From an uncultured Bacilli bacterium (GTDB lineage: Bacteria > Bacillota_I > Bacilli_A > RF39 > UBA660), in the NCBI GenBank assembly GCA_934183185.1, contig CAKPSO010000002.1, forward strand, positions 3,050 through 67,049: a stretch of 64,000 nt of DNA, read 5' to 3'. This document shows, one piece after another, positions 4,769 through 61,964 of this stretch (its first letter is position 1; each line of letters opens with the position of its first letter). Below the pieces are notes generated by a model that ran no database searches, was not told the origin of the DNA, and was given only the letters and a program-made list of their open reading frames with translations. Both the position numbers and the translations under genes were made by a program.

Positions 4769-4773
4769 TTTTT

Positions 4774-9520: not shown

Positions 9521-9522
9521 AA

Positions 9523-9804: not shown

Positions 9805-9820
9805 CCTTTCCTAATAGGAT

Positions 9821-9988: not shown

Positions 9989-9993
9989 AAAAA

Positions 9994-10070
9994 TGGTGGA
10001 CCCTGATGGACTCGAACCATCGACCGCCCGGTTATGAGCCGGATGCTCTAACCAACTGAGCTAAGGGTCC
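9994..10070 (-). tRNA. tRNA with CAU anticodon, sequence resembles tRNA-Ile2 (lysidine) more than elongator Met; encoded CCA
   Basis: Reverse complement GGACCCTTAGCTCAGTTGGTTAGAGCATCCGGCTCATAACCGGGCGGTCGATGGTTCGAGTCCATCAGGGTCCACCA closely matches Bacillus tRNA-Ile(CAU) architecture. Confidence 0.8.
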
Positions 10071-10151
10071 ATGACTATTTAATAATAGCACAAAGATAAA
10101 TAGTATGCAACAACTTTTGTTAAAAAAAATTAATTTCCCTTAATTTTATTT

Positions 10152-11051: not shown

Positions 11052-11132
11052 TATGCAACACCTCTTTTTTTGCCAATTAATATAACACTAATTATAATTA
11101 ATGTAAATAATAAAAGTAGGAATTTTTATTCC

Positions 11133-11561
11133 CTACTTGTGCAACATATTCATTAATTCAATTTTAAACATATCTCTTTTGGCATTTGACTTAGAAACCA
11201 TAACTCCCTTATATGTTGATAATTCTATTCTATGTCCCTCTTCAAAGATATCTTCTGGAGTTATATTGGTTAGTAATATGGTATTATTCTTAGAAAATAT
11301 AGTATAGTGTAATCTGATTACACCATGAACTTTTTTAAATAAATCATCAGTTGGCAACTCCAATTCATATGATACACTTGATTCATTTTTATTTTCTTCA
11401 ACAACTTTGCCTAAAAAGTTTCCATTTTTAAGCTCAGGATAATACTGGAATACTAATTTTTTATATGCTAACATGTTATATTTACGAAGTGAACGTTCTT
11501 TTAATCTAAAATCGTTTTCATTTAGATAATCAAAAATATATCCTTTTTTCATTTCAACCAT
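11133..11561 (-). CDS. Hypothetical protein with weak RelE/ParE-like C-terminal pattern
   Basis: HGVIRLHYTIFSKNNTILLTNI resembles the RelE/ParE beta-strand core; low confidence. Confidence 0.3.
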   Translation of the reverse strand: MVEMKKGYIFDYLNENDFRLKERSLRKYNMLAYKKLVFQYYPELKNGNFLGKVVEENKNESSVSYELELPTDDLFKKVHGVIRLHYTIFSKNNTILLTNITPEDIFEEGHRIELSTYKGVMVSKSNAKRDMFKIELMNMLHK

Positions 11562-11720
11562 CCCCTATTCATTGTCCCCCAACCTTATTTATATGCTCTA
11601 TGTCTATAATACAAGGTATTCATGATGTTACCACAAAATACCTTTAAAATCAAGCATTTTTAGCTAATATTAGACAGTTAAAAGGAAAAAGTACTAGAAT
11701 TTGACATCTAGTACTCTATT

Positions 11721-25251: not shown

Positions 25252-25683
25252 TTACTTCCTCCAAACTTTTTCTTTTAAATAATCCCATAGAGTCATTTTA
25301 TTCTGTTCTAATGATACTTCAATCAGAGGTATAGGAGTAGATAGTTTAGACGTTTCTATTAGAACCGGTAGATAAACTTTATTATTTTCCATTATACTTT
25401 CTCTCTCTATTTTCTTTATATCATATGTATATTTCTTTTTATTGTATAGAAATTTATTACTATTAAGCCATAAATCTATATCTTGGTATGGAACTATTAC
25501 TTGATATAAATTATTCTCTTTTATCTGTATTATAAACTTTTTCTGACCTACATAAGATAATTTAAAAAATATTAAAATAAATAATATTATAAAAATCAAT
25601 AAACTACGATGAAGTACATATAAAGGTAATTTGAAATAATCTCGTTCATAATTACCACTAGTAAGACTATTAATTATTTTCAT
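25252..25683 (-). CDS. Small membrane protein between exporter and bacteriocin genes (candidate immunity protein or truncated HlyD/LcnD-type accessory)
   Basis: 143 aa, one N-terminal TM helix (LLIFIILFILIFF); far shorter than the ~450-aa accessory proteins. Confidence 0.4.
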   Translation of the reverse strand: MKIINSLTSGNYERDYFKLPLYVLHRSLLIFIILFILIFFKLSYVGQKKFIIQIKENNLYQVIVPYQDIDLWLNSNKFLYNKKKYTYDIKKIERESIMENNKVYLPVLIETSKLSTPIPLIEVSLEQNKMTLWDYLKEKVWRK

Positions 25684-27751
25684 AGCAGATACCTTCTCTC
25701 ATTTCTATTTTTCGATTAAATAGATCATTATTGTGGTAACGGTGTGAAATAATTATAAAAGTCTTTTCAGGATACTTAGTAAATATATTGGTAAGTATTT
25801 CTCTTTCTCTATCAATATCTATTTCATTTAGACTCTCATCAAATATATACAAATCAGCATTCTTATAAATAGCTCTGGCAAGAATTATTCTTTGCCTTTC
25901 TCCACCACTTATATTAAAGCCATTTTCTTCTAATAGCATATTATATTTTAATGGATTGTTTTCTACTATTTCATCTACTTTGCATAAGGCGCATATATCT
26001 AAAAATGATTCATATTCTTCTTCGCTATCTAAATGAATATTTTGGTATACTGAGTCTTGAAATAAGATTTCATTCTGAGATAAGTAACATACCTGTCTTT
26101 TTAGAGTATCATTATCATACTCAGATAATGGATATTTATCTAGAGTTATACTTCCAGTAACTTGGGGTATTATTCCAGCTAATATTTTAGCTAGAGTACT
26201 TTTACCACTACCGCTTTTACCATAAATTAATACACGGTCACGAGCTTTTATTTCTAACGAAATTCCATTTAGAATTTTTCTTTTAGGACTATATTGATAA
26301 CTTAAATCCTTTACCATTATATTTCCAATAATTTTCTCTTTCTTCATTTTGATATTCTGAGCTTCATCTTGTGGTATTTGAAATAAGTCATCTACTCTTT
26401 CAATGGAAAGTTTGGCATCCCTCCACTTATATCCTATATCAAAAAGATTTCTAATTGGTTCAAAAAAATAAACTAATAATGTATAGAAAGTGAGAAGTTG
26501 TCCTAATGATATATTATCTTTTAGGACCATGAAAGAGCCTACAATTATAACCAAGAGAATGCCTATTTCTTCGATTAAATCACTTAGTGAACGTAAGTAG
26601 GTAAAAATAGTTGAAGTTCTGTAACTTACTTGTAAATACTCTTTTAATTTGGTAATGAAATTATGTTCTACATACTTTTCTATACCAAATCCACGTACTG
26701 TTTCCATTCCTGATATTGTTTCAACTAAATAAGAATTAGTAATATTAGCTTTTTCTTTTAATACTTTCATTCTTTTAGAAAACAATTGCCAAGATATTAG
26801 TATTATAATAACTAATATTAAAGTAATTACTATTAATATGCTTGATAATTGTATGCTTAGTTTAAGTAATACTATAATAACTGTTATTAAAAGAAAAGTA
26901 TCAACAAAGCAGGTAACAAAAACTTTTCCTAGAAAATCTTTTATATTTTCTAAATCCTGAACTCTAGCTACTATTTCTCCTGTAGAATGATTTTTATAAT
27001 ATAAATATGGGAGGGATAATAATTTGTGGTAAACATCTGTAAGAAGACTATTACTAATTACGTGATTGAAATGATGTAGTAATAAGTTTCTCCATAATTC
27101 AAGCCATTTTTTTAATAATATTACGAACATAAATGAAATTCCACCAAAATAAAGATTCGTAATGGATGAATATTGGATCACATAATCTAGTAATACTTGG
27201 AATTCAAATGATGAGACTATACTTAAAAAAGTAGTAAATGCTGATATTAAAGCTAAGCATATTAAATTCTTTCTATACTTATAAATTATCTTCTTGATTT
27301 TTGGCATTATTAATGATGAGTCTGTGTAATTAGGTATTTTCTTAACGGGGTATAAACATAAATATAAATCAGAAGATATTTTATTGAAGTCAAGAAAACT
27401 TATTTTTTTAATAGACGAGGCTGGATCTGCTATTAAAATCTTTTTTCTTTTATAGTCTATTTTGTAGATAACTATAAAGTGTTGGTAACTATTATTTATA
27501 ACTACGTGGGCTATACATGGTAAATCATTTTGATCCATATCTTCAATTTTACCTTTTAGTCCTTTAGTAGAAAAATTAAACTTTTTTGCAGCTTCCAATA
27601 AAGAATAGGCATCTACTCCATCTTTGGTTGTATGAGTAATATCTCTTAAATATTCTTTTGAAGCTCCACCACCATAATACTTCATTATCATAAGTAAGGA
27701 TGCTACCCCACAATCTTTAATTCCATCTTGAGATACAAATGGATATTTCAT
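25670..27751 (-). CDS. Bacteriocin ABC transporter with N-terminal C39 double-glycine peptidase domain
   Basis: C39 catalytic Cys (QDGIKDCGVASLLMI) and His (QHFIVIY), six TM helices, Walker A GKSGSGKST, signature LSGGERQR; probable start MKYPF at 27751. Confidence 0.9.
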   Translation of the reverse strand: MKYPFVSQDGIKDCGVASLLMIMKYYGGGASKEYLRDITHTTKDGVDAYSLLEAAKKFNFSTKGLKGKIEDMDQNDLPCIAHVVINNSYQHFIVIYKIDYKRKKILIADPASSIKKISFLDFNKISSDLYLCLYPVKKIPNYTDSSLIMPKIKKIIYKYRKNLICLALISAFTTFLSIVSSFEFQVLLDYVIQYSSITNLYFGGISFMFVILLKKWLELWRNLLLHHFNHVISNSLLTDVYHKLLSLPYLYYKNHSTGEIVARVQDLENIKDFLGKVFVTCFVDTFLLITVIIVLLKLSIQLSSILIVITLILVIIILISWQLFSKRMKVLKEKANITNSYLVETISGMETVRGFGIEKYVEHNFITKLKEYLQVSYRTSTIFTYLRSLSDLIEEIGILLVIIVGSFMVLKDNISLGQLLTFYTLLVYFFEPIRNLFDIGYKWRDAKLSIERVDDLFQIPQDEAQNIKMKKEKIIGNIMVKDLSYQYSPKRKILNGISLEIKARDRVLIYGKSGSGKSTLAKILAGIIPQVTGSITLDKYPLSEYDNDTLKRQVCYLSQNEILFQDSVYQNIHLDSEEEYESFLDICALCKVDEIVENNPLKYNMLLEENGFNISGGERQRIILARAIYKNADLYIFDESLNEIDIDREREILTNIFTKYPEKTFIIISHRYHNNDLFNRKIEMREGICYENN

Positions 27752-27850
27752 AATTATTATCACCTCCTGATAATAATTATTATAAGAAAGTTGGAAGATG
27801 ACTGCATTTTTTTTCAAAAAAGTTAAAAAAAATGAAAAAAACAGTATTTT

Positions 27851-39678: not shown

Positions 39679-42234
39679 TTATCTTGTTTTTTGCACTGAT
39701 TCTTCTACTACTTGATCAACACTATCCATTGCTTGTAAATCTTCTGAGTAGGATGATTGTTGTTCAAATTGTTTGATCAATTCATCTTCATCAAAATATG
39801 TAGCATTTGGTGGAGTAATATTACCATCTACGATTGGTGCATAATCAGGTGTTGGTGTAGGATTAACATCTGGCGTTGGAGTAACGTCTGGTGTTGGTTC
39901 TACAGTAGGTTCAGTAGTAGGTTGTGGGGTAATAACAGGTTCAGGTGTAGGAACATCTTTATTAGAATCTTCACTATTTCCTTTATTGATTACATCATCT
40001 ATTGTACCATTATTCCCTGTTGGATCAGTAGTTATTGTTCCAGGCTGAACATAATCTGGAACTTTGTTTGCTTCTTGCATACGTTTTTGATAGTCAGCTT
40101 GGCCATCTGATTTACCTTGGCTATAAGCACTACGGATAGTGCTATTTGCTGATGATGCATAACTACTATTATACTCATCTGTTCCACCTTGATTATAGTA
40201 GTTATAGGTATTAGCATATACGTTTTTATATAAGTTATCTAAGCCATCTTTCTTTGCTTTCTCATATCTATTTTTAACATTGGCATCGGTAGATGTTGAA
40301 TACTTAGTCATTTCACCAGTATTACCACTGGCAAAATAGTTAAATACATCATTATAATCAACTTGAAGTGCTGCTTTTTCTTGTCTTGCAATTTGCTCAT
40401 GTTTTTGCTTTGTGGCATCAGTATCTCTTTCAGAACCTACTGCTTTAGATGCGTCTTCTTCAGACTTAATAATTCCAGCTTCTGCCTCTGCTGGTGTGTT
40501 ACCATTGGCTACTAATGAATCTTTAGCTGCAGCTGTATTAGATGTTTCTAATATTTCTTGAAGTTTACTAGAATATGCTTTATCTGAGCCACCAATTTTT
40601 GATAATTCTTGTAAAGCTGTTTCAGTAACTTTTTCCCAGAAGGTATTAGAGTACATTTCGTTTTTGGTTAATGATTCAAGTTTTTGGTTAAGCATTGAAG
40701 CTATTAAATCATTATCATATGTATACTTAGTAAGTTCACCAATTACTGCATCTTCATTATCAAAATTCATATTACTAACTGCTTCAGCTACTTTATCAGC
40801 ATCTATTTTACCATCTTCGTCAGTATATACTGTAAGTTGTGCTTTTAAAGCTTGTTTATTATCTTCAACCATTTTGTCAGATGTCTCTAAATTTACTCTA
40901 TACTCATCGGCATCTCTAAATTTTTCTTCTTGTTCACCGCAAGATAAATCAGCTATACTTTCCTTAGTTCCATCTATTCCAAGATAATATTTTTCAGGAT
41001 TATATCCTAATTGTTTTAAGAAGTGGTTTTCATCAAACTCAGCAAATCCTTGAACATATCTACTCATAAATACTTCATCGAATAGATCTACCTTTACTTC
41101 AACTTCTTTAGCAGTACCAGTTGTATATATAGTCATTTTATCTTTATAATTTCTTAAATCAGCTTCTCTTTGATCTGCAGGTAACATTGTTCTTAATAGA
41201 TAAGAAGTTGAGCCAGCACGTGCTTTAGTTTCTTTACCTTCAATATCACTATTGAAGTAATCTTTATACATTTCTTTTTCTGCTTGCATTAATGTTTCTT
41301 TTTCATTAATTCCGGCACTCATCATTTTAGCATGATGTTCTTCAAATGTATTTATTACTTCTTTATCATGTTCATCATTGAAAAGTGATGAAATATTTGA
41401 TGTCTGATTACTTAATGAATAATATAAATTCATTTTTTCCATGAAATCATTACTTAAATCCATTATTTCATCAGCATTTATATTGCTTCCATTACAGATA
41501 GTAATTAATTCCTCATCAGTAAAATTATTAAATCTTAAATAGAAAGCCATTGTTTCTTTTGGCGTAAATCCAAATCTTGATTCTTGACCATTATTATTAG
41601 TTCTTGTCATCCAAGATTGTGAGTTATTGAATTCAAGTAGCCAAGTGCCTACTTTTGTCCAAGCTTCTTTTTGAATACTATCAATAGCATTTTCTGTGTA
41701 ATAATCCCAATCTTGACCATCCATACTAGGTTTTACTATCTCATCATTTACTTCTTCTTGAGTTTCTTCTGTAACTGGTTCTGCTTGATGATTACGAGCA
41801 TATGTAACACCCGCAACAGCTCCAGCTGTTACAGCAATGCCCAAACCAGTAAGTGCCATAGCTGTAGTAAGACGTGATTTACCGTTATTATCAACATTAT
41901 CATTCAAACTATCTCTATATTGTTCATATAATTCTAAACTTTTAGAGTTAGAAGCTTTGAAAAATTGTAAATCTTCTGAATCTTTTAATACTCCATTTTG
42001 TTTATTCAATGTGAATGAATTAGCAGAAAGACATTGACTAAATAATTTAGTCATATTTTGTCTTCCTTTAATATCATTCATTGCTTCGGCACTTACTATA
42101 CCATTTGTACCATCAGCATATTCAATTAATAATTGATAAACGCAATCTTTTTGAGTAACTTTAGGATCTGTTGCTTTATCAATTAATACTACTTTTAAAT
42201 TTTTAATATTTTTTGTATTAATTTGTTCTTCCAT
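39679..42234 (-). CDS. Large bitopic protein: ~120-aa cytoplasmic N-domain, one TM helix, ~700-aa extracellular domain, PT-rich C-terminal tail
   Basis: TM LTTAMALTGLGIAVTAGAVAGV; C-terminal TPEPVITPQPTTEPTVEPTPDVTPTPDVNPTPTPD. Confidence 0.45.
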   Translation of the reverse strand: MEEQINTKNIKNLKVVLIDKATDPKVTQKDCVYQLLIEYADGTNGIVSAEAMNDIKGRQNMTKLFSQCLSANSFTLNKQNGVLKDSEDLQFFKASNSKSLELYEQYRDSLNDNVDNNGKSRLTTAMALTGLGIAVTAGAVAGVTYARNHQAEPVTEETQEEVNDEIVKPSMDGQDWDYYTENAIDSIQKEAWTKVGTWLLEFNNSQSWMTRTNNNGQESRFGFTPKETMAFYLRFNNFTDEELITICNGSNINADEIMDLSNDFMEKMNLYYSLSNQTSNISSLFNDEHDKEVINTFEEHHAKMMSAGINEKETLMQAEKEMYKDYFNSDIEGKETKARAGSTSYLLRTMLPADQREADLRNYKDKMTIYTTGTAKEVEVKVDLFDEVFMSRYVQGFAEFDENHFLKQLGYNPEKYYLGIDGTKESIADLSCGEQEEKFRDADEYRVNLETSDKMVEDNKQALKAQLTVYTDEDGKIDADKVAEAVSNMNFDNEDAVIGELTKYTYDNDLIASMLNQKLESLTKNEMYSNTFWEKVTETALQELSKIGGSDKAYSSKLQEILETSNTAAAKDSLVANGNTPAEAEAGIIKSEEDASKAVGSERDTDATKQKHEQIARQEKAALQVDYNDVFNYFASGNTGEMTKYSTSTDANVKNRYEKAKKDGLDNLYKNVYANTYNYYNQGGTDEYNSSYASSANSTIRSAYSQGKSDGQADYQKRMQEANKVPDYVQPGTITTDPTGNNGTIDDVINKGNSEDSNKDVPTPEPVITPQPTTEPTVEPTPDVTPTPDVNPTPTPDYAPIVDGNITPPNATYFDEDELIKQFEQQSSYSEDLQAMDSVDQVVEESVQKTR

Positions 42235-42247
42235 TATGTTTCACCCC

Positions 42248-43780
42248 TTATTTATTTCTTGTTTTTCCGGTATATGTATAACCATTATTTAATAAGTTTT
42301 TATCTCCGTATGAACTCCATAAGTAAGTAGTTTTAGCTTCTTGAACATTAGTACATGTTTTCTCACGATAGAAATGAACATCACCATAAATTGCCTTTTC
42401 AGCTGATTTTTGAACTGTTTTAATTTCAGTTATAGTTCTATTTATATATAATGGGATTGAACGTGTTTCTACACTTGTACAAGTAGCTGTTACAGTAGCT
42501 GCAGAAGTGTGAGAAGTTCCATTACGTTTATATAAATGCCATACTGTATATGGGTGATTTGTACATGTTGCACCACATTCACCATAGTCTACCCCAACAG
42601 GTAACCATTTTGCAGTAGGGGTTGGATCTGATGGTGGATTGTATCCTCTATGTTCTTGTTTAGTATCATACCAATCACCTGTTACTTGAGTAATAGTATT
42701 TCCTGATACAACGTAATTATATCCTGTACATACTTTATAATCATGAGTGCCTACTTGAACTTGTTCAGGATAAGTAAATGTTACTTTTTCATAAACGGCT
42801 GGTTCAGTACCAATTTGTACTTTCTTAGTGCCTAAATCTTCTACTACTTTATAAATGTTATTTACTGTAGTTAAACTTTGTCCTGATTTAAGAAGTTTTG
42901 TTGACCAATTTGACCAGTTACTACAATAAGCTTCAGTATATTTTCTATATTCATATTCTTTTACTGGATTGTTACTTGGTTTTGGAGTACATTCATCTTT
43001 CCAAGTTTCAAAACTTACTTCAGTTGCATTTTTACCATAGTATTTACCATCTTTTATCTCACAAGCCTTTGGAACATCTGGAGTAACTGTTGGTGTTGGA
43101 GTTACTGTAGGTGTAGTTGTTGGCGTTGTAGTTGGTGTAGGTGTAGGTTTAACAGTTGGTGTATTAGTTGGAGTAAGTGTTGGTCTTGGGCTGTTACTTG
43201 GTTTAGGTGTTGGTTTATTAGTTAGTTTAGGTGTAGTTGAAGGTTTTTCAGTATTATTAGGTTTAGCTTCACAAATATCTGTTGAACAGTATGAGTAGCA
43301 TCCTAAATGTACTAAAATATAGTTTTCTTCTTCACTACATTTTAAGTTAACTTTCATTAGATATTCAGTATCTTTTTTCTCTAATGATACATATGATGCT
43401 GTTACATCACATGCTTTACCATTCTTATCAACAAATGGTATTAATAACTTCATGTCTAACATTTCTTGTAATGTCATTTTCTTAACATCACCTACATTTT
43501 CTGGTAATCTCTCAGTTGTATAGTAAGTGATTGCAGCATTCTTCATTTCTTGAATGTTAGCATTGAATATTTGATCCTTTAATGGGTTTAAAGCATCAAT
43601 ATATGAGTCCATTTTAGGCCATGGTACTAGCCATATAAGTAATAACACAAAGATGATAATCAAAATTAGCTTTAGTAAAAAGCTTTTTAGTAGATTTCCT
43701 TTTCTTTCTTCTGTATACATATTATAATCTCCCCCTTTGTTTATGTGCCGTATTATAGCATAAAACAAATTTTTTGTCAA
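42248..43780 (-). CDS. Signal-anchored Cys-rich extracellular protein with PT-rich linker
   Basis: N-terminal TM LLKLILIIIFVLLLIWLV, linker PTPKPSNSPRPTLTPTNTPTVKPTPTPTTTPTTTPTVTPTPTVTP, many Cys; 14-nt gap to upstream gene. Confidence 0.45.
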   Translation of the reverse strand: MTKNLFYAIIRHINKGGDYNMYTEERKGNLLKSFLLKLILIIIFVLLLIWLVPWPKMDSYIDALNPLKDQIFNANIQEMKNAAITYYTTERLPENVGDVKKMTLQEMLDMKLLIPFVDKNGKACDVTASYVSLEKKDTEYLMKVNLKCSEEENYILVHLGCYSYCSTDICEAKPNNTEKPSTTPKLTNKPTPKPSNSPRPTLTPTNTPTVKPTPTPTTTPTTTPTVTPTPTVTPDVPKACEIKDGKYYGKNATEVSFETWKDECTPKPSNNPVKEYEYRKYTEAYCSNWSNWSTKLLKSGQSLTTVNNIYKVVEDLGTKKVQIGTEPAVYEKVTFTYPEQVQVGTHDYKVCTGYNYVVSGNTITQVTGDWYDTKQEHRGYNPPSDPTPTAKWLPVGVDYGECGATCTNHPYTVWHLYKRNGTSHTSAATVTATCTSVETRSIPLYINRTITEIKTVQKSAEKAIYGDVHFYREKTCTNVQEAKTTYLWSSYGDKNLLNNGYTYTGKTRNK

Positions 43781-45003: not shown

Positions 45004-46755
45004 CTAGAAATACCAGCTGCTTAGCCATTTAAGACTATCAATATAGTCACTATTAGTAAGCATTCCTGATATTACTGGATAGAAACAAATAAACATTAAT
45101 ATTACAATAGCTACATAGAATAAGTAAACACTATTATTTTTGATTTTTTCAGTTATCCATTTAATGAAAGCTGTTATAGCTAACATAACAAATGGTAAAG
45201 TTGGGAAATAATGATACATAAACATAACTCTTCCAATAAATAAATATGGTAACCAACTACATAGTATAAATACTAGGATAAAAGCATATTCTCTTTTTTT
45301 CTTTAGAATAGTCATGATTAATACAAAGATACTTGCAAGTATTCCAAACCACCAAATAGCTGGATTACCAATACCTACGATAGTAGATTTAATATTTCCA
45401 CCGTGATATCCTACATAATACCAAACTGGTTTATACATAATTGGCCATGTATACCATTTAGAAGAAAAATCATGAGTAGCAGTTAATTTAGAATGATATT
45501 CATACATATTTTTAGTTTGTTCTATTAGGCCACTAATACCTGATACTTTACCAGGATAAATAGTTGGGAATAATAAGTATGCTAGTGTATAAATTACGAT
45601 AGGCATTACTACAAAGAATAGTATGCAAGCAAGAATTATTTTACCTAAATCTTTTTCTTTTCTACCTCTTCTATTTTGAAGAATAATATGAGTAAAGAAC
45701 ACAATAGCTAGTCCTAATCCAATGTATAATCCAGTCCATTTAGTAGCTATAGCACATCCTATAAATAAGCCTGATAGGAATAGATTTAATAATTTTTTGC
45801 TTAGTCTTTCTCTCTTATCCATAACGATATATTTATACATAAATAGTACTGATAACATCATGAATAATACTAAGAAGCTATCTACAGTTCCCATTCTGGT
45901 TTGTGCAAAATGGAAACAATCAAATGTCATAAGTAATGCTGCAAGTATAGCCCATTTTCTATTTTTGAAAATGTTTTTAGCTAATGAATAGATAACAGGT
46001 ATCATTAATATACCAGCAATATTACCCATTAGACGGTAAGCAAATGTACACATTCCAAATAACATAATTGGAAGAGTCATAAGTAATTTACCAAGTGGTG
46101 GATGAACCCATTCATTAGTTGGAATACCATGAATATATTCATAGGCACTTCTAGCAAAATAAACTTCATCAAAGTAAGCACTATTTTTATAGCTTATTGT
46201 TGCTGGAACAGTGTTTGCTTCATCTATTACTACTTTACTTTGATCATCATTAGCTATAGCAGTTATTTTTTCACCATATTTATCATATAGTTGAATTTCT
46301 CCTATAACGCTTCCTTTATCTTTAGCAACAAATTTAATATATTTACCTGTAGTATCTATATTAAAATCATTCCAAGAGAATACCATATTTTGTTCTATGG
46401 TTGTTAGATAGTCATAATTTTCTCCATCGTTAGATGCAAATATATCATAACTACCTACTTCATAACCAGAGTAGATTCTTGCAAGTCCTACTTCTTGGTT
46501 AGGTTTTTGTAATTCTAGGCCAATTTCTTCTCCAGAATATTGGAATTCATAAAAAGTTTGTGGATTTTTAAGAGTTCCTAAATCTTTAAAAGATAAAATA
46601 GCATAGAATAATACGAATACTGCAATTATTATCCAGTCTGTCTTTTTAAGTTTACGATCATCATCACGAAGATATGATTTCACTTTAGAAAACCAAGTCG
46701 TTTTCTGTTTGTTTTCTTTTGTTTCTTTTTTCTTTTTCATATGACTATGATTCAA
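45004..46755 (-). CDS. GT39 (PMT/ArnT-like) protein O-mannosyltransferase-like membrane glycosyltransferase with inserted N-terminal discoidin-like domain
   Basis: YFDEVYFARSAYEYI DE motif and HPPLGKLLM, more than 10 TM helices; ~140-aa soluble domain between TM1 and the DE motif. Confidence 0.65.
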   Translation of the reverse strand: MNHSHMKKKKETKENKQKTTWFSKVKSYLRDDDRKLKKTDWIIIAVFVLFYAILSFKDLGTLKNPQTFYEFQYSGEEIGLELQKPNQEVGLARIYSGYEVGSYDIFASNDGENYDYLTTIEQNMVFSWNDFNIDTTGKYIKFVAKDKGSVIGEIQLYDKYGEKITAIANDDQSKVVIDEANTVPATISYKNSAYFDEVYFARSAYEYIHGIPTNEWVHPPLGKLLMTLPIMLFGMCTFAYRLMGNIAGILMIPVIYSLAKNIFKNRKWAILAALLMTFDCFHFAQTRMGTVDSFLVLFMMLSVLFMYKYIVMDKRERLSKKLLNLFLSGLFIGCAIATKWTGLYIGLGLAIVFFTHIILQNRRGRKEKDLGKIILACILFFVVMPIVIYTLAYLLFPTIYPGKVSGISGLIEQTKNMYEYHSKLTATHDFSSKWYTWPIMYKPVWYYVGYHGGNIKSTIVGIGNPAIWWFGILASIFVLIMTILKKKREYAFILVFILCSWLPYLFIGRVMFMYHYFPTLPFVMLAITAFIKWITEKIKNNSVYLFYVAIVILMFICFYPVISGMLTNSDYIDSLKWLSSWYF

Positions 46756-46942: not shown

Positions 46943-48871
46943 CTACGGAGCAAGCACTACACGAAAAGAATTGTACGTGTCCACATCGCCTGGACCGAAG
47001 CCGAATGCAAATGCACCAGATTCAGTGGCATTGTACCAATAGCCCCCGCGTACGAACCAAGGAAAATAAAAATCAGCAAAGAGAGCGAGATCTCCATACC
47101 AACTTGATTTTTGCCTAGTTGTACCATCTGGATCTTTTTCACTTCCAAATGGGCCCATCTCTCCAGTTGCATCTCCTAAAATTCTATTATTATATTGTGT
47201 TTTAGAAATTGATGTATATTTATCCCAATATTTTGTATAAGTACTATTAGTAAAGAAGTCTTGATATATACTAGTTATTTCGCTTTTTCCCCCTACTGTT
47301 GTTGCACCAGTAGTATAGCCTGCTACATATTCCCAGGCACCTCCTGCCATATCATAAATTCCACTTCTATTTCCTGTAGTTGATGCTACACCTGAGTTAG
47401 CATTTAAATAATTTACAGTATAGGTTCCATCTACTCCTAAAGAAGTTGATTCATGTCTATTAGTATCGGTACTTGAACTAGTTGGACCAGTTGTTGGCTC
47501 AGTAGTTGATGCATAACCGGTAATATATGCTTCATTATTATTTATTCTGATACTAGCTTTACTACCATATACTGAATGTTGTAAGTATGCTACCGCTCCC
47601 CACTCTGTATTCTTCATCATATGTGAATCTAAATTTCTTTGATAATCATAACTATTTTTAAAAGCATTACCTACAGTTATATTTCGCCAACTATATACAT
47701 TTGGTTTTATTATTATCTTACTTGTATCTACACTGTTTACTTGGGCGGCACTAGTACTTGTAGCTTTATCATATCCAGTTTCAAACTTTCCTACCCAGAA
47801 ACCATTTGAATCAAAACTAGTAAATGCTGGATGAGTTAACCATGAGTCCTTAGTAGTTCCATTTGATGGAGTTGTATCTTTATTCTCAAATACTACATTT
47901 ATGGTTTGAACTTTGTTTTCGATACTAGTTAGGCTTGTATAATTACCTTCATCAAATATTTGGTATTTGAACCTAGGTATCCATACAAAGTATGACTCAA
48001 TATTATCTTCTGGTATTGTTTCTCCATTATTATAAGTTTTTGTTTCATCTTTTAATATTATGGCATTGGCCCATTCTTTATTTTCATACTTGTACCATTC
48101 TTTACTTATGTCTGCCTTAGTTACTGTTCCATCACCAGCTATTTTTATTGGTATTAAATTACCCTTTAATACTGGGTCTGTTCCATTTAATATTGTTTCT
48201 TTATATGCAGTTGTTTCTTTTTCTATATCCACATTTGAATATACATTTACTGTTGCTTTAAACGTTTTATCATTATATGGATATACTTGATTACCACTAT
48301 TATCTTTTGTTGGTGAAAAGTCTGTAGCCTCATCTATCCATATTCTTAATCTAAAACTCTTTTCATAATTAGTAGTATTTGCTTTTATTGTTGATTGGTA
48401 TAAAGTCTTTTCTATATTACCATTTACTTCTACCTTTGTATCAGCTAATTGATTATACTTAGTTGGTGCTACTAATACTCTTTCCGTTGTATCTGTAGTA
48501 TCAGTTAAATATACTTTTACTACACTAGAATCTAGTGTTGAATCGCTACTCTTTCTTAATGTTACTTCATATGGCATAATAGTATCTCCAGTATTTGTTG
48601 CCTGTACTTTAAAATCAAAAATATTATTATTACCTTCTAATAGTTTTCCTTGACTATCTGATATTGGAAAGGCATTAGTCATAGTTATACCATTTCCTCC
48701 ACCACTATTTTCTGTATATATAAATTTTAATGTTCCTGTAGTTACTGTATTATCTGTAGTTCCTAATTTTGTATAAGTAAATACTGCATAAGTTACTCCC
48801 GTAGTTATTAATAGTAGGCTAGCTATTCCAAGTAAAGATACTATTATTTGTCTACTCTTATTACTCATCAT
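46943..48871 (-). CDS. TasA/camelysin-like secreted protein (SipW-cognate signal) with C-terminal FGE-sulfatase-like domain
   Basis: N-terminus LLLITTGVTYAVFTYTKLGTTDNTVTTGTLKF matches GxTxAxF(S/T)D...GTL pattern of TasA/CalY; C-terminal GIYDMAGGAWEY and RGGYW...FRVV resemble FGE-sulfatase fold. Confidence 0.6.
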   Translation of the reverse strand: MMSNKSRQIIVSLLGIASLLLITTGVTYAVFTYTKLGTTDNTVTTGTLKFIYTENSGGGNGITMTNAFPISDSQGKLLEGNNNIFDFKVQATNTGDTIMPYEVTLRKSSDSTLDSSVVKVYLTDTTDTTERVLVAPTKYNQLADTKVEVNGNIEKTLYQSTIKANTTNYEKSFRLRIWIDEATDFSPTKDNSGNQVYPYNDKTFKATVNVYSNVDIEKETTAYKETILNGTDPVLKGNLIPIKIAGDGTVTKADISKEWYKYENKEWANAIILKDETKTYNNGETIPEDNIESYFVWIPRFKYQIFDEGNYTSLTSIENKVQTINVVFENKDTTPSNGTTKDSWLTHPAFTSFDSNGFWVGKFETGYDKATSTSAAQVNSVDTSKIIIKPNVYSWRNITVGNAFKNSYDYQRNLDSHMMKNTEWGAVAYLQHSVYGSKASIRINNNEAYITGYASTTEPTTGPTSSSTDTNRHESTSLGVDGTYTVNYLNANSGVASTTGNRSGIYDMAGGAWEYVAGYTTGATTVGGKSEITSIYQDFFTNSTYTKYWDKYTSISKTQYNNRILGDATGEMGPFGSEKDPDGTTRQKSSWYGDLALFADFYFPWFVRGGYWYNATESGAFAFGFGPGDVDTYNSFRVVLAP

Positions 48872-57548: not shown

Positions 57549-58148
57549 CTATGATGCACAGGTATTGCTACTATATATAGTAGCAATCCAATCTATTCTA
57601 TTACCGTTAGTATCGGTTGGTTGAAGATTTTCTAAGCCTTTGATAGTTGACAAAACAGCTTTTTTACCAGATGGGGTTCCACATAGAGACTGAATAGTTA
57701 CTTCCATTTTATTCTTAGCATCTGATATTACTTCACTACGATTTACATCATCAATATTCATTAGTGGAATAGCATGACGATCTTTGTCCTGCCCAGCTAC
57801 AAGATATGTATATTCAATATTATTAGGAGTTCCAGTATTTACAACTGCTACATAACTTTTACTTTTTACCCACTCACTGTCAAAGGAAGATGAAAATTTA
57901 CCTTTATCAAGTGGTATTGATTCTAATGAAACGATTAAAACTTGATTAAAATCTATTGGTGCCGTATAATCTTCTGCTGCTATTCCTTTACGAACTGCAT
58001 CTACATATTCAGATAAAACATCGGCGAAGGCTTCTCTTTTAGATGAATCTATATAATTAGAAGCTGCTGGAATAGCTATAGTTAAAACAATACTTAATAT
58101 TACTACTACGCCTAATAATTCTACTAGTGTAAAGCCTTTTCTATTCAT
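57549..58148 (-). CDS. Type IV pilin-like protein (prepilin N-terminus, C-terminal disulfide loop)
   Basis: MNRKGFTLVELLGVVVIL class III signal with G-F cleavage site and E+5; Cys pair near C-terminus. Confidence 0.75.
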   Translation of the reverse strand: MNRKGFTLVELLGVVVILSIVLTIAIPAASNYIDSSKREAFADVLSEYVDAVRKGIAAEDYTAPIDFNQVLIVSLESIPLDKGKFSSSFDSEWVKSKSYVAVVNTGTPNNIEYTYLVAGQDKDRHAIPLMNIDDVNRSEVISDAKNKMEVTIQSLCGTPSGKKAVLSTIKGLENLQPTDTNGNRIDWIATIYSSNTCAS

Positions 58149-58226
58149 GTTCTCACATCCCTATGTTAATAATATCATAAATTTTATAAAAGTACAAAAG
58201 AAAAACCCAACTTTGTGGGTTTCTTT

Positions 58227-58826
58227 TTATTTAGCTACTTCTTTTACAGTGATGACATTCTGTTCAGTGCTACTAGCTTTTTCTAATCTACCGTTAGTTG
58301 CTACTTTAAAATAAGTTGGTGTTGATGAAGTAGTATCATATATTTTTTCAAAACCATTGCTGTCTAGACGAATTACATCTGATGCTTTTAGACTTTTTTC
58401 ATCTATTATTTCAAGATTTTTATTTGAACCAGTTACATATTTACCATCTGATGCTGTTACATAATAATCGTATTTTGGTGAATCTGCTGATCCTGTATTT
58501 ACTATTATTACATAAGAATTATCTAACTTCCATGGTAAGTCATATGAACTATTTACTCCACCTTTTTCAATAGCGATACTTAATACGCTAAATGGTACTA
58601 CTGTTGCATCGTTAGTATCGATTGGATAACTATATTCATCTCCTAATGTTGCTCCTTTTCTTGCAGCATCTATAAATTGAATTAAGTTATCTTTATATCC
58701 ATTCTTTCTTGATTTAGTTATATATTGAGATACAGCTGGGATAGCTATTCCTAATACTACAGCTAAAATTACGATTACAGCTAGTAATTCAATTAATGTG
58801 AACCCTTTCTTATTTAATTTCTTCAT
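58227..58826 (-). CDS. Type IV pilin-like protein, copy 1 of duplicated gene
   Basis: MKKLNKKGFTLIELLAVIVILAVVLGIAIP prepilin motif; first ~140 codons identical to 61292..61873. Confidence 0.75.
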   Translation of the reverse strand: MKKLNKKGFTLIELLAVIVILAVVLGIAIPAVSQYITKSRKNGYKDNLIQFIDAARKGATLGDEYSYPIDTNDATVVPFSVLSIAIEKGGVNSSYDLPWKLDNSYVIIVNTGSADSPKYDYYVTASDGKYVTGSNKNLEIIDEKSLKASDVIRLDSNGFEKIYDTTSSTPTYFKVATNGRLEKASSTEQNVITVKEVAK

Positions 58827-58845
58827 AATAACTATTCTCCTCTCT
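58410..58845. repeat. Direct repeat copy 1 (~436 bp, near-identical to 61454..61892) covering pilin 5' half and RBS
   Basis: Line-by-line identity over coding 5' region and ATAATAACTATTCTCCTCTCT RBS region. Confidence 0.8.
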
Positions 58846-58931
58846 ATTATTATATTTTAATTTTACTACTAATAATTTTTAATTGTCAACAAAGGGCAAT
58901 ACTTTTAAAAATTATTGTCACTAGTTTACAT

Positions 58932-59435
58932 TTAGTTACTACAAGTTCTAATTCCACCAGTTACACCAGTGATACTACGAATATCGCTATCAGTTGGCAC
59001 TGTAAAGTTTTTAACTACATAGCTTAATTTGCCATCTTCATCAAGTTTTTTCTTTTCTGTTAGGCGAATTCCTCTATTCTTACCGTTTTCACCAGCTACA
59101 AGATTAACATAGTAGACTAGTTCTTCGTCTTTATGGACCACAATCACAAAGGAATCAGTTTCGCTATATTCATTTCCATCAGGATCTTTAGTTAGGTCCT
59201 GATTATCAACACATGATAGGTTGATTCTTACTATTTCACCAGCTACTGGTTTACTGATTGTGTTAGCTAATTCTGTTTTGGCTTGGGTTAAAAACTTTTT
59301 AGCATCTGATATATAAGTTTCTTTTTTGCTTTTTTCTAAGCTAGATACTATATTTGGTATAGCTATTCCCATAATAATAGAGAGAATTACCAATACTGCT
59401 AAAAGTTCTATTAATGTAAATCCACGTTTATTCAT
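58932..59435 (-). CDS. Type IV pilin-like protein with C-terminal Cys pair
   Basis: MNKRGFTLIELLAVLVILSIIMGIAIP prepilin motif. Confidence 0.75.
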   Translation of the reverse strand: MNKRGFTLIELLAVLVILSIIMGIAIPNIVSSLEKSKKETYISDAKKFLTQAKTELANTISKPVAGEIVRINLSCVDNQDLTKDPDGNEYSETDSFVIVVHKDEELVYYVNLVAGENGKNRGIRLTEKKKLDEDGKLSYVVKNFTVPTDSDIRSITGVTGGIRTCSN

Positions 59436-59466
59436 ATTTTTTCTCCTTTTTTGAATTGATTTTTAT

Positions 59467-61197
59467 TTAACTTATAACGTATGGGTCAGAACTTGTCCCA
59501 GTTCCCGTTACCAGCATGTCAGCATTCAGGCTCAAAACTGCACGAAGGCGATTAGTAACATTAACATTGTCGTTATTGATGTTACCTGACGTATTTACGC
59601 GCCATACAGTCGAACCCAAGAAGCCGGCCGGGCTCATTGTCCACCAATTAATAGCTGAATTATATAAATAATATTTACTATTATCTTTTCCATAATAACC
59701 ACCTGCATGTACTACTTCATCATAACTTAATAATCCCACACTGGCATTGACTGGTCCTTTTCCATTTCCATCGGTTGTACATTTAAAATCTGGCGTATAA
59801 CTTGAGTATAATGTCATTGTTGCACTTCCCGATGTCCAACTTGAATCACATTTAGCTTTTGCTTGTTCACAATAATAATTGCCACTAGCTACATTTTTAA
59901 CTAAGTCTGCTTTACTTCCGATATTCGTTTGATACCAGCTTTCAAGTTGAGTCTTAGCTTCACTATTTGAATAATACATATAAGTATAGTTTTTATAATT
60001 TGGATTAAATGCAATATTAGCATTACTATTGATTCCATCTTGCATTACGATTCTTATTGTTCCATCTTCATTTACTCTTACTATTCTCCATGTTTGACCA
60101 GCAAACTTTACATAGTTATTAGTAACATTTCCTCTAAAGTAATATGTTGGATTTCCTGTATTAGTAGCAGTCGATTTATATAATCCACTTGCATCACTTG
60201 TATTATTACTTGATGTAGTAAGTGTTGGATTAGCTGTAATTATTGTATTTTTCATTATTTCATCTTTTAATGGTACTGCCTGTTTTACTTTAATATTAAT
60301 TTTGTATTCTTTAGTTACTGTTTGATCTGTACTAGTAATAGTTACTTTATAGATATTATTACCACCTACTAGACTTACTTCACTATTATTTGATATTACT
60401 TGATTATCTTTTTCTATCTTTACATTAGCTAATGAATACTTAGGTACTATATTTAACTTAGTAGTAGTTTCACTATCTAACTCTACTTCATAGTTCCAGT
60501 CTTTTCCTTCTACTTTAGTTAAACTGGTATCTCCTATAGTTATATCTTTTATATCAGTATTACTTCTTAATACTTGTTCTTCAGCTGATATTACTTTAGC
60601 ATTTGAATATACATTTACTGTTGCTGTAAAGGTTTGTCCTCCTATAACGCTTAAATCTGCATTTTCATCTAACCACATTTTTAATCTAAATGTCTTTAAA
60701 TAATTATTAGTATTTCCTGCTACTTCTCCTTTATAGATACTCTTTTCTACATTATTTCCAACATCAGTAGTAGTTTGTACTAATTTACTATATAGTGTTG
60801 GTGTTAGTAATTCTGTTTGATCTATCCCATCTTGAAGATATACTTTTATATTATCTTCTCCCATAGTAGAAGTAGCTTTCTTTCTTAGTGTTACTTCATA
60901 TGGTATTACTTCACTTCCAGTATTTGTTCCTTCTACTTTGAAATCAAATACATTATTATCTCCTACTAATTCTTTACCCTTAGTATCTGATATTGGTTCT
61001 GCTTCAGTTATACTTATTCCATTACCATTAGTATTATTTTCTGTATACAAGAACTTTAATGTACCAGTAGTTATGATATTATCTGTAGTTCCTTCCTTTG
61101 TATAAGTAAATACTGCATAGGTTACTCCTATAGTTATTAAAAATAAACTTACTATTCCTAGTAATGATACTATTAGTTGCCTCCTATTAGTCTTCAT
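59467..61197 (-). CDS. TasA/camelysin-like secreted protein (SipW-cognate signal) paralog with distinct C-terminal domain
   Basis: LFLITIGVTYAVFTYTKEGTTDNIITTGTLKF; first ~200 aa homologous to 46943..48871; C-terminus WWTMSPAG...NRLRAVLSL. Confidence 0.6.
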   Translation of the reverse strand: MKTNRRQLIVSLLGIVSLFLITIGVTYAVFTYTKEGTTDNIITTGTLKFLYTENNTNGNGISITEAEPISDTKGKELVGDNNVFDFKVEGTNTGSEVIPYEVTLRKKATSTMGEDNIKVYLQDGIDQTELLTPTLYSKLVQTTTDVGNNVEKSIYKGEVAGNTNNYLKTFRLKMWLDENADLSVIGGQTFTATVNVYSNAKVISAEEQVLRSNTDIKDITIGDTSLTKVEGKDWNYEVELDSETTTKLNIVPKYSLANVKIEKDNQVISNNSEVSLVGGNNIYKVTITSTDQTVTKEYKINIKVKQAVPLKDEIMKNTIITANPTLTTSSNNTSDASGLYKSTATNTGNPTYYFRGNVTNNYVKFAGQTWRIVRVNEDGTIRIVMQDGINSNANIAFNPNYKNYTYMYYSNSEAKTQLESWYQTNIGSKADLVKNVASGNYYCEQAKAKCDSSWTSGSATMTLYSSYTPDFKCTTDGNGKGPVNASVGLLSYDEVVHAGGYYGKDNSKYYLYNSAINWWTMSPAGFLGSTVWRVNTSGNINNDNVNVTNRLRAVLSLNADMLVTGTGTSSDPYVIS

Positions 61198-61291
61198 CTA
61201 TAAATACTCCCTTCTATTTTCTACATTACCAGTATAATTCATTAGTAAAATAGCAGTCAAGAAAAAATGTATAAAAAAAGAAGAAGCTTTT

Positions 61292-61873
61292 TTATTTAGA
61301 AGCTACTTCTTTTACAGTTATTGTTCCATTAGAATCAGATGTTAGTCTACCAGTTGATGCGTTAACAGTAAATTTATTACCAACTGCTATAGTACTGAAT
61401 CCATTATTATCTAGACGAATTACATCTGCTGCTTTTAAATTCTTTTCATTAATAATTTCAAGATTTTTATTTGAACCAGTTACATATTTACCATCTGATG
61501 CTGTTACATAATAATCGTATTTTGGTGAATCTGCTGATCCTGTATTTACTATTATTACATAAGAATTATCTAACTTCCATGGTAAGTCATATGAACTATT
61601 TACTCCACCTTTTTCAATAGCGATACTTAATACGCTAAATGGTACTACTGTTGCATCGTTAGTATCGATTGGATAACTATATTCATCTCCTAATGTTGCT
61701 CCTTTTCTTGCAGCATCTATAAATTGAATTAAGTTATCTTTATATCCATTCTTTCTTGATTTAGTTATATATTGAGATACAGCTGGGATAGCTATTCCTA
61801 ATACTACAGCTAAAATTACGATTACAGCTAGTAATTCAATTAATGTGAACCCTTTCTTATTTAATTTCTTCAT
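61292..61873 (-). CDS. Type IV pilin-like protein, copy 2 of duplicated gene
   Basis: Identical N-terminal 140 aa to 58227..58826, divergent C-terminus. Confidence 0.75.
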   Translation of the reverse strand: MKKLNKKGFTLIELLAVIVILAVVLGIAIPAVSQYITKSRKNGYKDNLIQFIDAARKGATLGDEYSYPIDTNDATVVPFSVLSIAIEKGGVNSSYDLPWKLDNSYVIIVNTGSADSPKYDYYVTASDGKYVTGSNKNLEIINEKNLKAADVIRLDNNGFSTIAVGNKFTVNASTGRLTSDSNGTITVKEVASK

Positions 61874-61892
61874 AATAACTATTCTCCTCTCT
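61454..61892. repeat. Direct repeat copy 2 (~439 bp)
   Basis: Near-identical to 58410..58845. Confidence 0.8.
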
Positions 61893-61964
61893 TTATTATC
61901 AATCTAATTGTACAAGAGGAGAATAGTTTTGTCAATTATATTAGAAATTTTATTTAGAAAGATT

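Follow-up and report, generated by a model that had tools for sequence, protein, structure and literature searches.

The locus is best explained as a type IV pilin cluster in which two isoforms of a putative major pilin are kept alike by gene conversion, and which carries an independent, probably adhesin-encoding gene as a passenger; we give this reading a probability of about 0.65. The cell would encode two major-pilin isoforms, the same in the part used for assembly and differing in their exposed C-termini.

Organization of the pilin locus

In the window (the whole 64-kb stretch of DNA that was analysed), ORF calls place four prepilin genes and a gene for a 576-aa protein between an ABC exporter gene and nfo, all on the minus strand. 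The order of transcription is ABC exporter, pilin A2, 576-aa gene, pilin C, pilin A1, pilin D and nfo, with 10 nt between the end of pilin D and nfo. The first-pass annotation had described the pilins as downstream of nfo; the direction of transcription places them upstream of it. Its placing of the large gene between two pilin genes was confirmed by the ORF calls.

63992-61965, minus: ABC exporter
61292-61873, minus: pilin A2, 193 aa, second copy of the putative major pilin (ORF, repeat, A1/A2 comparison)
59467-61197, minus: 576-aa surface protein, member of a dispersed multicopy family (Pfam, homologues, AF2 models)
58932-59435, minus: pilin C, 167 aa (ORF, PF07963, TIGR02532)
58227-58826, minus: pilin A1, 199 aa, the copy of the putative major pilin that keeps the ancestral place, between C and D (sister lineage L014 has one A gene, and A1 is collinear with it)
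57549-58148, minus: pilin D, 199 aa, with a C-terminal Cys pair, the most conserved pilin in the cluster (PF07963, 31.2 bits; TIGR02532)
57539-56658, minus: nfo

Prepilins were defined by a short basic leader ending in Gly(-1), followed by Phe(+1), Glu(+5) and a hydrophobic alpha-1N segment of ~20 aa, and by an HMM score above the curated cutoff. All four pilins carry the motif K/R-G-F-T-L-[IV]-E-L-L with Glu at +5 and pass both PF07963 (31-35 bits against a cutoff of 21.2) and TIGR02532, and by these measures the four prepilin genes reported earlier are genuine. No PilB/PilT ATPase, PilC platform protein or PilD peptidase was recognisable on inspection of all ORF translations of the window, which upholds the earlier remark that no pilus machinery is in view, and the gene tables consulted for related loci show no prepilin peptidase, assembly ATPase or platform protein either. 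Judged from sequence, the pilins, if they are assembled at all, may be subunits of a type IV pilus, a Com pilus or a secretion pseudopilus. The locus would represent a conserved "orphan" type IV pilin cluster with the ancestral order pilin C-pilin A-pilin D, flanked by a MarR/ABC-exporter pair and nfo, in a clade of gut Bacilli that are uncultured and spore-forming and have a low GC content (28.5%); their pilus assembly machinery would be encoded elsewhere in the genome. From the promoter, terminator and duplication pattern, and from these only, we infer that A is the major pilin; pilin C may be a minor pilin.

A lineage-specific segment upstream of pilin C

Compared by blastn with L014, which lacks the large gene, the window shows 96.6% identity in the ABC gene and 87% in a collinear C-A-D-nfo block, with 97% for pilin D and 80% for pilin C against their orthologues. 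Only one segment is extra in the window, where it stands in place of the 112-nt spacer between the ABC gene and pilin C of the sister lineage:

59436-61964, minus: lineage-specific segment of about 2.5 kb, comprising A2, ~60 nt of upstream sequence particular to A2, and the 576-aa gene (blastn against L014, gene tables)

According to the gene tables, the large gene is missing from the ABC/nfo site in L014-16, L012/13 and L021, where the pilin cluster is a plain one. Because pilin C is retained in these lineages and their A gene is about 80% identical, they are, on sequence comparison, the ancestral state and not excision products. The same comparison shows that the window's lineage gained a second A copy and the large gene, and in this species a block of ~2.5 kb replaced the spacer upstream of pilin C. 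The A gene is duplicated in three lineages, with within-genome identities of 100, 85 and 96% in the N-part and 48, 51 and 45% in the C-part, a distribution by which A duplication is recurrent across lineages. Assemblies made independently from four or more further samples show the architecture of the window again, and therefore its repeat is not a one-off assembly artefact; the A2-large gene-C arrangement is kept in 5/5 strains of the species.

Direct repeats and gene conversion between A1 and A2

Long near-identical direct repeats around ~3 kb had been reported at 58410-58845 and 61454-61892. Alignment bore them out as exact over 438 bp and shifted the coordinates slightly:

58408-58845: first copy of the direct repeat, 438 bp, 100% identity with copy 2 (sequence comparison)
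61455-61892: direct repeat copy 2, 438 bp (sequence comparison)

The copies lie in direct orientation at an offset of 3,047 bp, and each contains 19 nt of leader, including the RBS, and the first 419 nt of the pilin A ORF (about 139.7 codons). A 438-bp exact match cannot be of chance origin. Beyond the exact repeat, weaker identity extends as far as about 58351, and the two ORFs are identical again over a block of 21 nt at their extreme 3' ends. In the encoded proteins, the first 140 aa are identical, identity past residue 140 is 48%, and the last ~7 residues (TVKEVA) are conserved.

Over nt 1-419, A1 and A2 differ within a strain at 0 sites in the window, ERZ15609761 and ERZ28614049 and at 6 sites in L020, and orthologues differ between strains at 2-9 sites. 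The three strains with identical A1 and A2 show 2-6 between-strain differences, which are common to both copies, and a strain-specific state is common to both copies at 7/11 variable sites (48, 60, 142, 165, 240, 300 and 301). Strain-specific SNPs common to the two copies show that the repeats recombine, as had been suggested; the exchange shown is gene conversion. The pattern indicates that recurrent conversion keeps the A1/A2 5' tract identical, with tract boundaries at -19 and +420 in all strains. Conversion would homogenise the tract from the RBS through codon 140; the 3' part beyond it is mostly distinct and, for each paralogue, stable across strains. The "recent duplication" proposed in the first-pass annotation is not supported; the duplication is older than the split between the strains, and conversion appears to have preserved the identity.

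The sequences compared all come from short-read metagenome assemblies. De Bruijn assemblers can pop bubbles between near-identical copies, and collapse of such copies could inflate within-strain identity. It could be argued on this ground that the copies really differ, or that a single copy exists, and that the assembler made the repeat or evened out its copies. We regard this as highly improbable. Both copies have unique flanks on each side, the samples are independent, and contig naming suggests at least two assembly pipelines. L020 spans the entire locus in a single contiguous 83-kb contig and retains the six copy-specific SNPs, and therefore the assembler was able to tell the copies apart. 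The recombinant haplotype 010100 splits SNPs 23 nt apart, a result that, by our reasoning, bubble popping between two parental paths would not easily produce, and the contig breaks in three samples fall inside the multicopy large gene and not in the pilin repeat. L020 and this haplotype also speak against an inflation of within-strain identity by collapse.

Repeats that demonstrably exchange sequence, with 438 bp of perfect direct identity, offer an ample substrate for deletion, and the ABC/pilin-C junction is an insertion hot spot. A RecA-dependent crossover between them would delete the stretch from the 3' end of A2 through pilin C, large gene included, and leave a hybrid A gene (A2 promoter and A1 3' end), switching the surface phenotype in a subpopulation; consensus assemblies hide minority variants, so a low rate of deletion could go unseen. 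However, both junctions are kept in all five strains, no ABC-A-D contig lacking C was met, and no site-specific recombinase is adjacent. The deletion would also be irreversible, so not true phase variation, and would remove pilin C, which is conserved in every lineage. An excisable or phase-variable cassette, as first proposed, is thus quite unlikely.

Predicted promoters and transcription units

Predicted transcription signals lie at the following positions:

61907-61935, minus: A2 sigma-70-like promoter, TTGACA, 17-nt spacer, TACAAT, 11/12 matches (consensus match)
61231-61260, minus: sigma-70-like promoter of the 576-aa gene, TTGACT, 18-nt spacer, TATACT, 10/12 matches (consensus match only)
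58860-58889, minus: A1 sigma-70-like promoter, TTGACA, 18-nt spacer, TAAAAT, 11/12 matches (consensus match only)
58201-58224, minus: terminator-like hairpin directly after pilin A1, a 9-bp stem followed by a T-run

The top two sigma-70 matches in 5.7 kb sit exactly upstream of A2 and A1, and a third lies upstream of the large gene. The A2 promoter is outside the repeat and different from that of A1, so that each isoform would have its own near-consensus predicted promoter. The transcription units are likewise predictions; the 576-aa gene and pilin C now appear to share a transcript, as the stop of the former and the start of the latter are separated by 31 nt in which the consensus scan listed no promoter.

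The 576-aa gene, a probable passenger among the pilin genes

The large protein begins with ...GVTYAVFTYTKEGTTDNIITTGTLKF, a signal of Sec type and not class III (no G-F-T-L-x-E). Its approximate domains are as follows:

60553-61197: N-domain, aa 1-215
60283-60552: Ig-like domain, aa ~216-305 (Ig-like fold hits)
59467-60180: DUF6273 / C-type-lectin-like region, aa ~340-576

In Pfam, aa 472-558 of the protein score 25.3 bits for DUF6273 (PF19789), above the cutoff of 23.5, and the protein has a weak Cadherin-like match; DUF6273 is also present in P0083 and P0099 (precomputed domain). More than 2,214 homologues were found, and the N-domain family falls into 1,748 clusters at 50% identity, where it is always N-terminal in proteins of 99-1,781 aa. 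Close paralogs with 83-85% identity lie at unrelated loci without pilins. A second member in the window is located 10 kb from the 576-aa gene, with no Pfam match and no pilin gene nearby:

46943-48871, minus: second family member, 642 aa, with the same N-domain (59% identity) and an unrelated C-terminus

Family members are 93-99% identical in the N-half and 73-87% in the C-half. Across strains, the orthologue is nearly unchanged over the first ~890 nt, and identity drops to about 75% over nt 894-1682. A diversity-generating retroelement (DGR) target was considered for this region and rejected. The strain differences extend over about 790 nt and involve all four bases, being neither adenine-limited nor confined to a short variable region, and therefore reflect recombination or divergence and not DGR mutagenesis. 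No DGR template repeat or reverse transcriptase was found in the window, where the 3' end of the gene occurs once and none of the ORFs is RT-like; a retroelement elsewhere in the genome could still act on the gene.

The first-pass annotation had called the protein a giant TasA/camelysin-like protein. A real, weak resemblance stands for the N-terminal ~200 aa only; the rest is Ig-like and DUF6273. When the N-domain family was aligned profile to profile with 38 proteins of the TasA family (hhalign), the match spanned 66 columns, exactly those of the signal, TYAxF and GTLxF (probability 39%, E 3e-4). The 576-aa protein itself did not match Peptidase_M73 (PF12389) or TasA (NF046066) even at E<=1, and Foldseek returned nothing significant for it. 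Among 50 diverse relatives of the N-domain, Peptidase_M73 matched three (best E 0.005) and TasA one (E 0.008), all below threshold. None of the SipW-cognate signal models matched the protein, and the NCBIfam scan gave one weak, unrelated match (BT_3928 family). No sipW or S26 peptidase lies beside the family gene in the window, L001, L005, L006 or L017, and the S26 gene ~8 kb from the L014 pilin cluster is LepB-type (TIGR02227, 165 bits; TIGR02228, 19.8 bits).

It was also proposed that the locus encodes a composite or novel fibre system. The large protein and the pilins would then function together, either with a type IV filament or pseudopilus pushing a folded adhesin or fibre subunit through the peptidoglycan, or with the large protein displayed on or with the pilus. 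The arrangement conserved in all strains, the probable co-transcription with pilin C and the loss of the ancestral upstream spacer by pilin C fit this proposal, as do N-domain residues 32-55, which in the AF2 monomer are modelled as unstructured ahead of a beta-sandwich, as a donor strand would be. In Clostridium perfringens, BsaC requires the pilin PilA3 for its secretion, and some type IV pilus genes are needed for the TasA-like BsaA oligomer to be secreted efficiently (PMC11580942). On the other hand, the sister lineages have an ordinary pilin cluster without the large gene, and no pilin motif occurs within 8-10 kb at the seven other family loci (eight other family genes). The large gene has its own predicted promoter and a Sec-type signal, the loci examined lack an adjacent sipW, the sole S26 peptidase seen is of the LepB type, and the TasA homology is weak. 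The plain clusters in the sisters are what the first-pass annotation itself had named as refuting the composite proposal; close paralogs also lie away from pilins, and we consider the proposal unlikely. The 576-aa gene is regarded as a passenger in the pilin locus and not as a pilus component. Its product is most likely an independent Sec-exported adhesin, which would be built of an N-terminal anchor or stalk remotely like TasA, an Ig-like spacer and a strain-variable, C-type-lectin-like DUF6273 head.

Comparison with known systems

In antigenic variation of Neisseria pilE/pilS, non-reciprocal exchange takes place between pilin gene copies, with a conserved N-terminal and a variable C-terminal part, and the pilS-type cassettes are silent, promoterless and partial and donate variable sequence to one expression locus. 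A1 and A2 resemble this system in both the exchange and the division into parts. In contrast, only two copies exist, and neither is a silent cassette: each is a complete, full-length ORF that has its RBS and a near-consensus predicted promoter. Conversion homogenises the conserved part without shuffling the variable part, and antigenic variation of the pilE/pilS type was rejected on these grounds.

TasA, CalY and BsaA form donor-strand-exchange fibres with SipW (PMC9674648, PMC11580942). The 576-aa protein differs from them in failing the Peptidase_M73 and TasA HMMs, in its length with added Ig-like and lectin-like domains, in the absence of a sipW or tapA partner beside the gene, and in the dispersal of its family as single genes and not in matrix operons. 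The modular pilins PilB and PilC of Streptococcus sanguinis (PMC8179133) likewise join a small N-terminal assembly or anchor module to a bulky adhesive module, with the gene among pilins; the 576-aa protein, in contrast, lacks a class III signal and is therefore by definition not a pilin. DUF6273 has a C-type-lectin-like fold that binds ligands in phage receptor-binding proteins, the tentaclins (PMC10743442), and is the N-terminal domain of the gut IgA protease of Thomasclavelia ramosa (PMC12402451); it is the C-terminal domain of the 576-aa protein that passes the DUF6273 threshold. This is the hypervariable part of the protein, which would fit a ligand-binding head.

A1 and A2 also resemble PilE1 and PilE2 of S. 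sanguinis, likewise a Gram-positive case of two full-length, separately encoded major-pilin paralogues (PMC6497953). Both pairs have identical N-termini and high overall identity, and in both the paralogues are not equivalent. Unlike PilE1/PilE2, the A1 and A2 genes are 2.4 kb of foreign DNA apart and outside any pil machinery locus, and their 5' identity appears to be maintained by gene conversion. A1 and A2 diverge in the C-terminal ~55 aa, whereas the modelled difference between PilE1 and PilE2 is a shorter alpha1-beta1 loop. As would be expected of dual major pilins, A1 and A2 have the same first 140 aa and separate predicted promoters; the shared, filament-building part would take in the class III signal and the alpha-1 helix as well as the front of the globular domain, and the differing C-termini would be surface-exposed. 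PilE1 and PilE2 co-assemble into heteropolymeric filaments, a precedent for dual major pilins with identical N-termini (PMC6497953), and co-assembly of A1 and A2 is putative. The likeliest function of the two isoforms would be co-assembly into mixed filaments or differential expression, either of which would diversify the surface or its antigens, along the lines of PilE1/PilE2.

Organization of the Pilin Locus

All genes between 56.6 and 64.0 kb, as predicted from the ORFs of the window, were located on the minus strand.

Genes of the locus in transcription order, with two predicted elements
63992-61965, minus: ABC exporter, cut by the window end, first in order
61873-61292, minus: pilin A2, 193 aa, second in order
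61260-61231, minus: promoter-like site of the large gene
61197-59467, minus: large gene encoding a 576-aa protein, third in order
59435-58932, minus: pilin C, 167 aa, fourth in order
58826-58227, minus: pilin A1, 199 aa, fifth in order
58224-58201: terminator-like hairpin directly after A1
58148-57549, minus: pilin D, 199 aa, sixth in order
57539-56658, minus: nfo, last in order

A short basic leader followed by G-F-T-L-[IV]-E-L-L was present at the N-terminus of all four small proteins, and all four pilins passed PF07963 and TIGR02532. We tentatively assign pilin A as the major pilin, with C and D in minor roles. No pilus ATPase, platform protein or prepilin peptidase was recognizable by inspection among the ORF translations of the 64-kb window. 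The G+C content of the window was 28.5%, its closest named genomes were 'uncultured Bacilli bacterium' MAGs from Hadza gut samples, sporulation genes were found among the neighbors, and a plasmid megablast with the locus gave no match.

The first-pass annotation had described a pilin cluster with a large gene and direct repeats, which was confirmed by the ORFs, the HMM passes and an exact 438-bp identity between A1 and A2 (58408-58845 = 61455-61892, offset 3,047 bp). This tract extended from 19 nt 5' of the ATG to ORF nt 419 and, as it begins upstream of the start codon, includes the RBS. The sequences 5' of the tract were unrelated, and the top sigma-70 matches of the region in a consensus scan lay one in each A upstream region, at 11/12 positions each (TTGACA-17-TACAAT for A2 and TTGACA-18-TAAAAT for A1). 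The spacing between the large gene and pilin C was 31 nt, where the promoter scan listed no match. Past nt 419 the identity of A1 and A2 fell off, and after residue 140 the proteins were 48% identical, with a conserved TVKEVA tail.

Origin of the Arrangement

In a sister lineage, represented by contigs L014-L016, the gene order was ABC-ABC-C-A-D-nfo, with a single A and without the large gene. Its pilin A was 79-81% identical to that of the window, and its DNA was 96.6% identical over the ABC gene and 87% identical and collinear over C-A-D-nfo. Compared with this lineage, the sole extra DNA in the window was 59436-61964, which takes the place of a 112-nt spacer and comprises a second A gene preceded by ~60 nt of A-type upstream sequence, together with the 576-aa gene. 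More distant lineages (contigs L012/13 and L021) carried two A paralogues in tandem, in the order C-A-A'-D. In L021 the ABC/pilin-C junction, occupied by A2 and the large gene in the window, contained an unrelated 372-aa gene in opposite orientation (4163-5281, minus). This site looks like a hot spot for insertions.

Tandem A duplicates of the distant lineages
L012 9158-10600: N-terminal 140 aa 85% identical, C-termini 51%
L021 6029-7326: N-terminal 140 aa 96% identical, C-termini 45%

Across the three two-A lineages, the first 140 aa were 100, 85, and 96% identical within a genome and the C-terminal parts only 45-51%, while the first 140 aa were 52-76% identical between lineages; a pair with conserved N-terminus and variable C-terminus is therefore a recurrent feature of the locus. 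The L012 paralogues contained no exact identity block; their identity was good over the first ~350 nt and reached 84.8% over 525 nt.

Concerted Evolution of the Two Pilin Copies

The arrangement was recovered from further metagenomes as big(C-terminal part)-C-A1-D-nfo (L007, L008, L009), as ABC-ABC-A2-big(N-terminal part) (L010, L011), and as the full ABC-A2-big-C-A1-D-nfo on a single 83-kb contig (L020) that was 95.6% identical to the window. Within a sample, A1 and A2 differed over nt 1-419 at no site in the window, ERZ15609761 and ERZ28614049 and at six sites in L020, whereas orthologous copies differed at 2-9 sites between strains, and at 7 of the 11 variable sites the strain-specific base was common to both copies of its strain. 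Because the duplication junctions were the same in all strains, the duplication is older than the strain divergence, and strain-specific changes common to both copies therefore need non-reciprocal exchange. Assembler collapse, which could also produce two identical copies, is unlikely, since copy-specific SNPs were retained in L020 and one haplotype splits SNPs just 23 nt apart. The repeats do recombine, and in this respect the interpretation of the first-pass annotation was partly upheld. The detectable outcome of exchange was homogenization, however, and the excisable or phase-variable cassette suggested there was not supported.

The 5' ends of L007, L008, and L009 and the 3' ends of L010 and L011, from three independent samples, were contig breaks that all lay within the 576-aa gene, away from the 438-bp pilin repeat. 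These breaks fit a large gene that is a more highly repeated genomic sequence than the pilin repeat.

Family, Domains and Variability of the 576-aa Protein

More than 2,214 homologues of the 576-aa protein were found, several per genome, and 83-85% identical copies occurred at unrelated loci, beside secG/rnr, cation ATPase, or STAS/sigma-factor genes. At the seven other loci examined, which carry eight genes of the family, no pilin motif occurred within 8-10 kb.

Domains of the 576-aa protein and second family member in the window
aa 1-215: N-domain
aa ~216-305: Ig-like sandwich, weak Cadherin-like hit and Ig-like fold hits
C-terminal region: passes Pfam DUF6273
46943-48871, minus: second family member, 642 aa, same N-domain, different C-terminus without Pfam hit

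A C-type-lectin-like character has been reported for DUF6273 in phage receptor-binding proteins (PMC10743442) and in a gut IgA protease, where it is the N-terminal domain (PMC12402451). Identity among family members was 93-99% in the N-half and 73-87% in the C-half. In a MAFFT alignment with the window, the large-gene orthologue of L007-L009 was near-perfect to ~nt 890 and ~75% identical over nt 894-1682, so the head domain varies between strains that are 99% identical elsewhere, and recombination among paralogues is the presumed cause. Mutagenesis of the DUF6273 head by a diversity-generating retroelement (DGR) was not supported, as no template repeat or reverse transcriptase was present in the window and the changes were not adenine-specific. 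Mobility of the large gene with conserved flanks was also not supported: upstream and downstream sequences differed between loci, with the exception of a leader shared by L005b and L006.

Contig L005 carried two paralogues of the family in tandem (8203-9990 and 10001-11731), and a ~100-nt leader was conserved between its upstream paralogue and the gene of L006 (upstream of position 10001 of L006), at a different locus in a different genome. This leader contains an ACACGT...ACGTGT palindrome and may be a common regulatory element. A PMT-family protein O-mannosyltransferase (45004-46755, minus) lay directly downstream of the 642-aa family member, an adjacency that suggests that these Thr/Ser-rich surface proteins may be O-glycosylated. 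The weak Cadherin-like signature in the middle of the 576-aa protein also occurred in a 467-aa surface protein (1338-2741, minus), which combines Big_2 and Cadherin-like domains with a transmembrane anchor at the C-terminus and a Lys-rich tail.

TasA Likeness of the N-Domain

Clustering at 50% identity divided the N-domain family into 1,748 clusters. The domain was invariably N-terminal, in proteins spanning 99-1,781 aa, many of them stand-alone with ~200-230 aa. Pfam and NCBIfam held no model for the domain, and the TasA, camelysin and SipW-cognate models did not match the 576-aa protein; sub-threshold hits to Peptidase_M73 and to TasA appeared in three and one, respectively, of 50 diverse relatives. 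With hhalign, the N-domain aligned to 38 bona fide TasA-family proteins over 66 columns at a probability of 39%, the columns being the signal peptide and the T-[YW]-A-x-F and G-T-L-x-[LF] motifs. AF2 modeling of the full protein with 56 close homologues gave a pLDDT of 62 with an unusable N-domain, and Foldseek returned Ig-like hits only. Modeled alone with 50 diverse representatives (pLDDT 86), the N-domain was predicted as an N-terminal helix, low-confidence residues 32-55 and a beta-sandwich at 60-200; Foldseek against the PDB gave only non-specific, non-significant hits, and phmmer and profile searches of PDB sequences gave nothing relevant. No sipW was adjacent to the large gene or to family genes at the loci examined, and in L014, a lineage without the large gene, the S26 peptidase gene located ~8 kb away from the pilins was LepB-type. 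The TasA resemblance noticed at first pass is thus real, but amounts at most to remote homology of the first ~200 residues.

Other Genes in the Window

Two proteins of 851 and 510 aa (39679-42234 and 42248-43780, both minus) with Pro/Thr-rich linkers (TPTPTV... repeats) had no Pfam hit and are probably further cell-surface proteins. A histidyl-tRNA synthetase (13488-14861, minus) had an unusual Cys/His/Asp-rich C-terminal tail (…DDDACCCSDHECNCHDNGDDCSCNGDCHCHDDIEF) that looks like a metal-binding extension. The orphan-gene cluster at 7480-11561 (minus), including a Mob_Pre plasmid recombination/relaxase fragment (8328-9362), is probably a decayed mobile element. At 25670-27817 (minus), the N-terminal C39 peptidase domain of an ABC exporter places it with the transporters that process and secrete bacteriocins or signaling peptides.

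Discussion

The locus represents a clean natural case of concerted evolution in Gram-positive pilin genes. The two copies are kept identical in the part that, from general pilin architecture, should build the filament, and can diverge in the C-terminal part, which should lie exposed. Comparable pairs of A-type pilins arose or persisted in three lineages of one uncultured clade of gut bacteria, a pattern suggestive of selection in the gut for pilus surfaces that are mixed or switchable.

The composite pilus/TasA fibre proposed at first pass was not borne out. Ordinary pilin clusters lacking the inserted DNA occur in related genomes, an outcome that the first-pass annotation had itself named as refuting, and the large protein, which belongs to a dispersed adhesin-like family, is most likely a passenger in the locus and not a fibre component. 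The question of a joint system was settled by sister-lineage synteny, and co-location in one genome was no evidence of such a system. A functional link between the large protein and the pilins is improbable but conceivable, as the arrangement is fixed in the species, the large gene and pilin C probably share a transcript, and there is a precedent in C. perfringens, where export of proteins encoded in the operon of the TasA-like matrix proteins depends on type IV pilins (PMC11580942). The family itself is very large and unannotated in these bacteria, combines a conserved TasA-like N-module with hypervariable lectin-like heads, and its members are candidate adhesins for binding to the host or to glycans.

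We consider it unlikely, at about one chance in ten, that the ~200-aa N-domain is an unrecognized TasA/BsaA donor-strand-exchange branch and that the gene was captured into the pilin operon for filament-aided export or display. The N-domain would then form a stalk that polymerizes or anchors the protein and carries exchangeable lectin heads ('modular TasA-like adhesins'), and the type IV filament would help the large protein across the Gram-positive wall, for export or display; pilus-aided export has likewise been proposed for the Bsa proteins of C. perfringens. For the homogenized A1/A2 pair, the closest known analogue is PilE1/PilE2 of S. sanguinis (PMC6497953).
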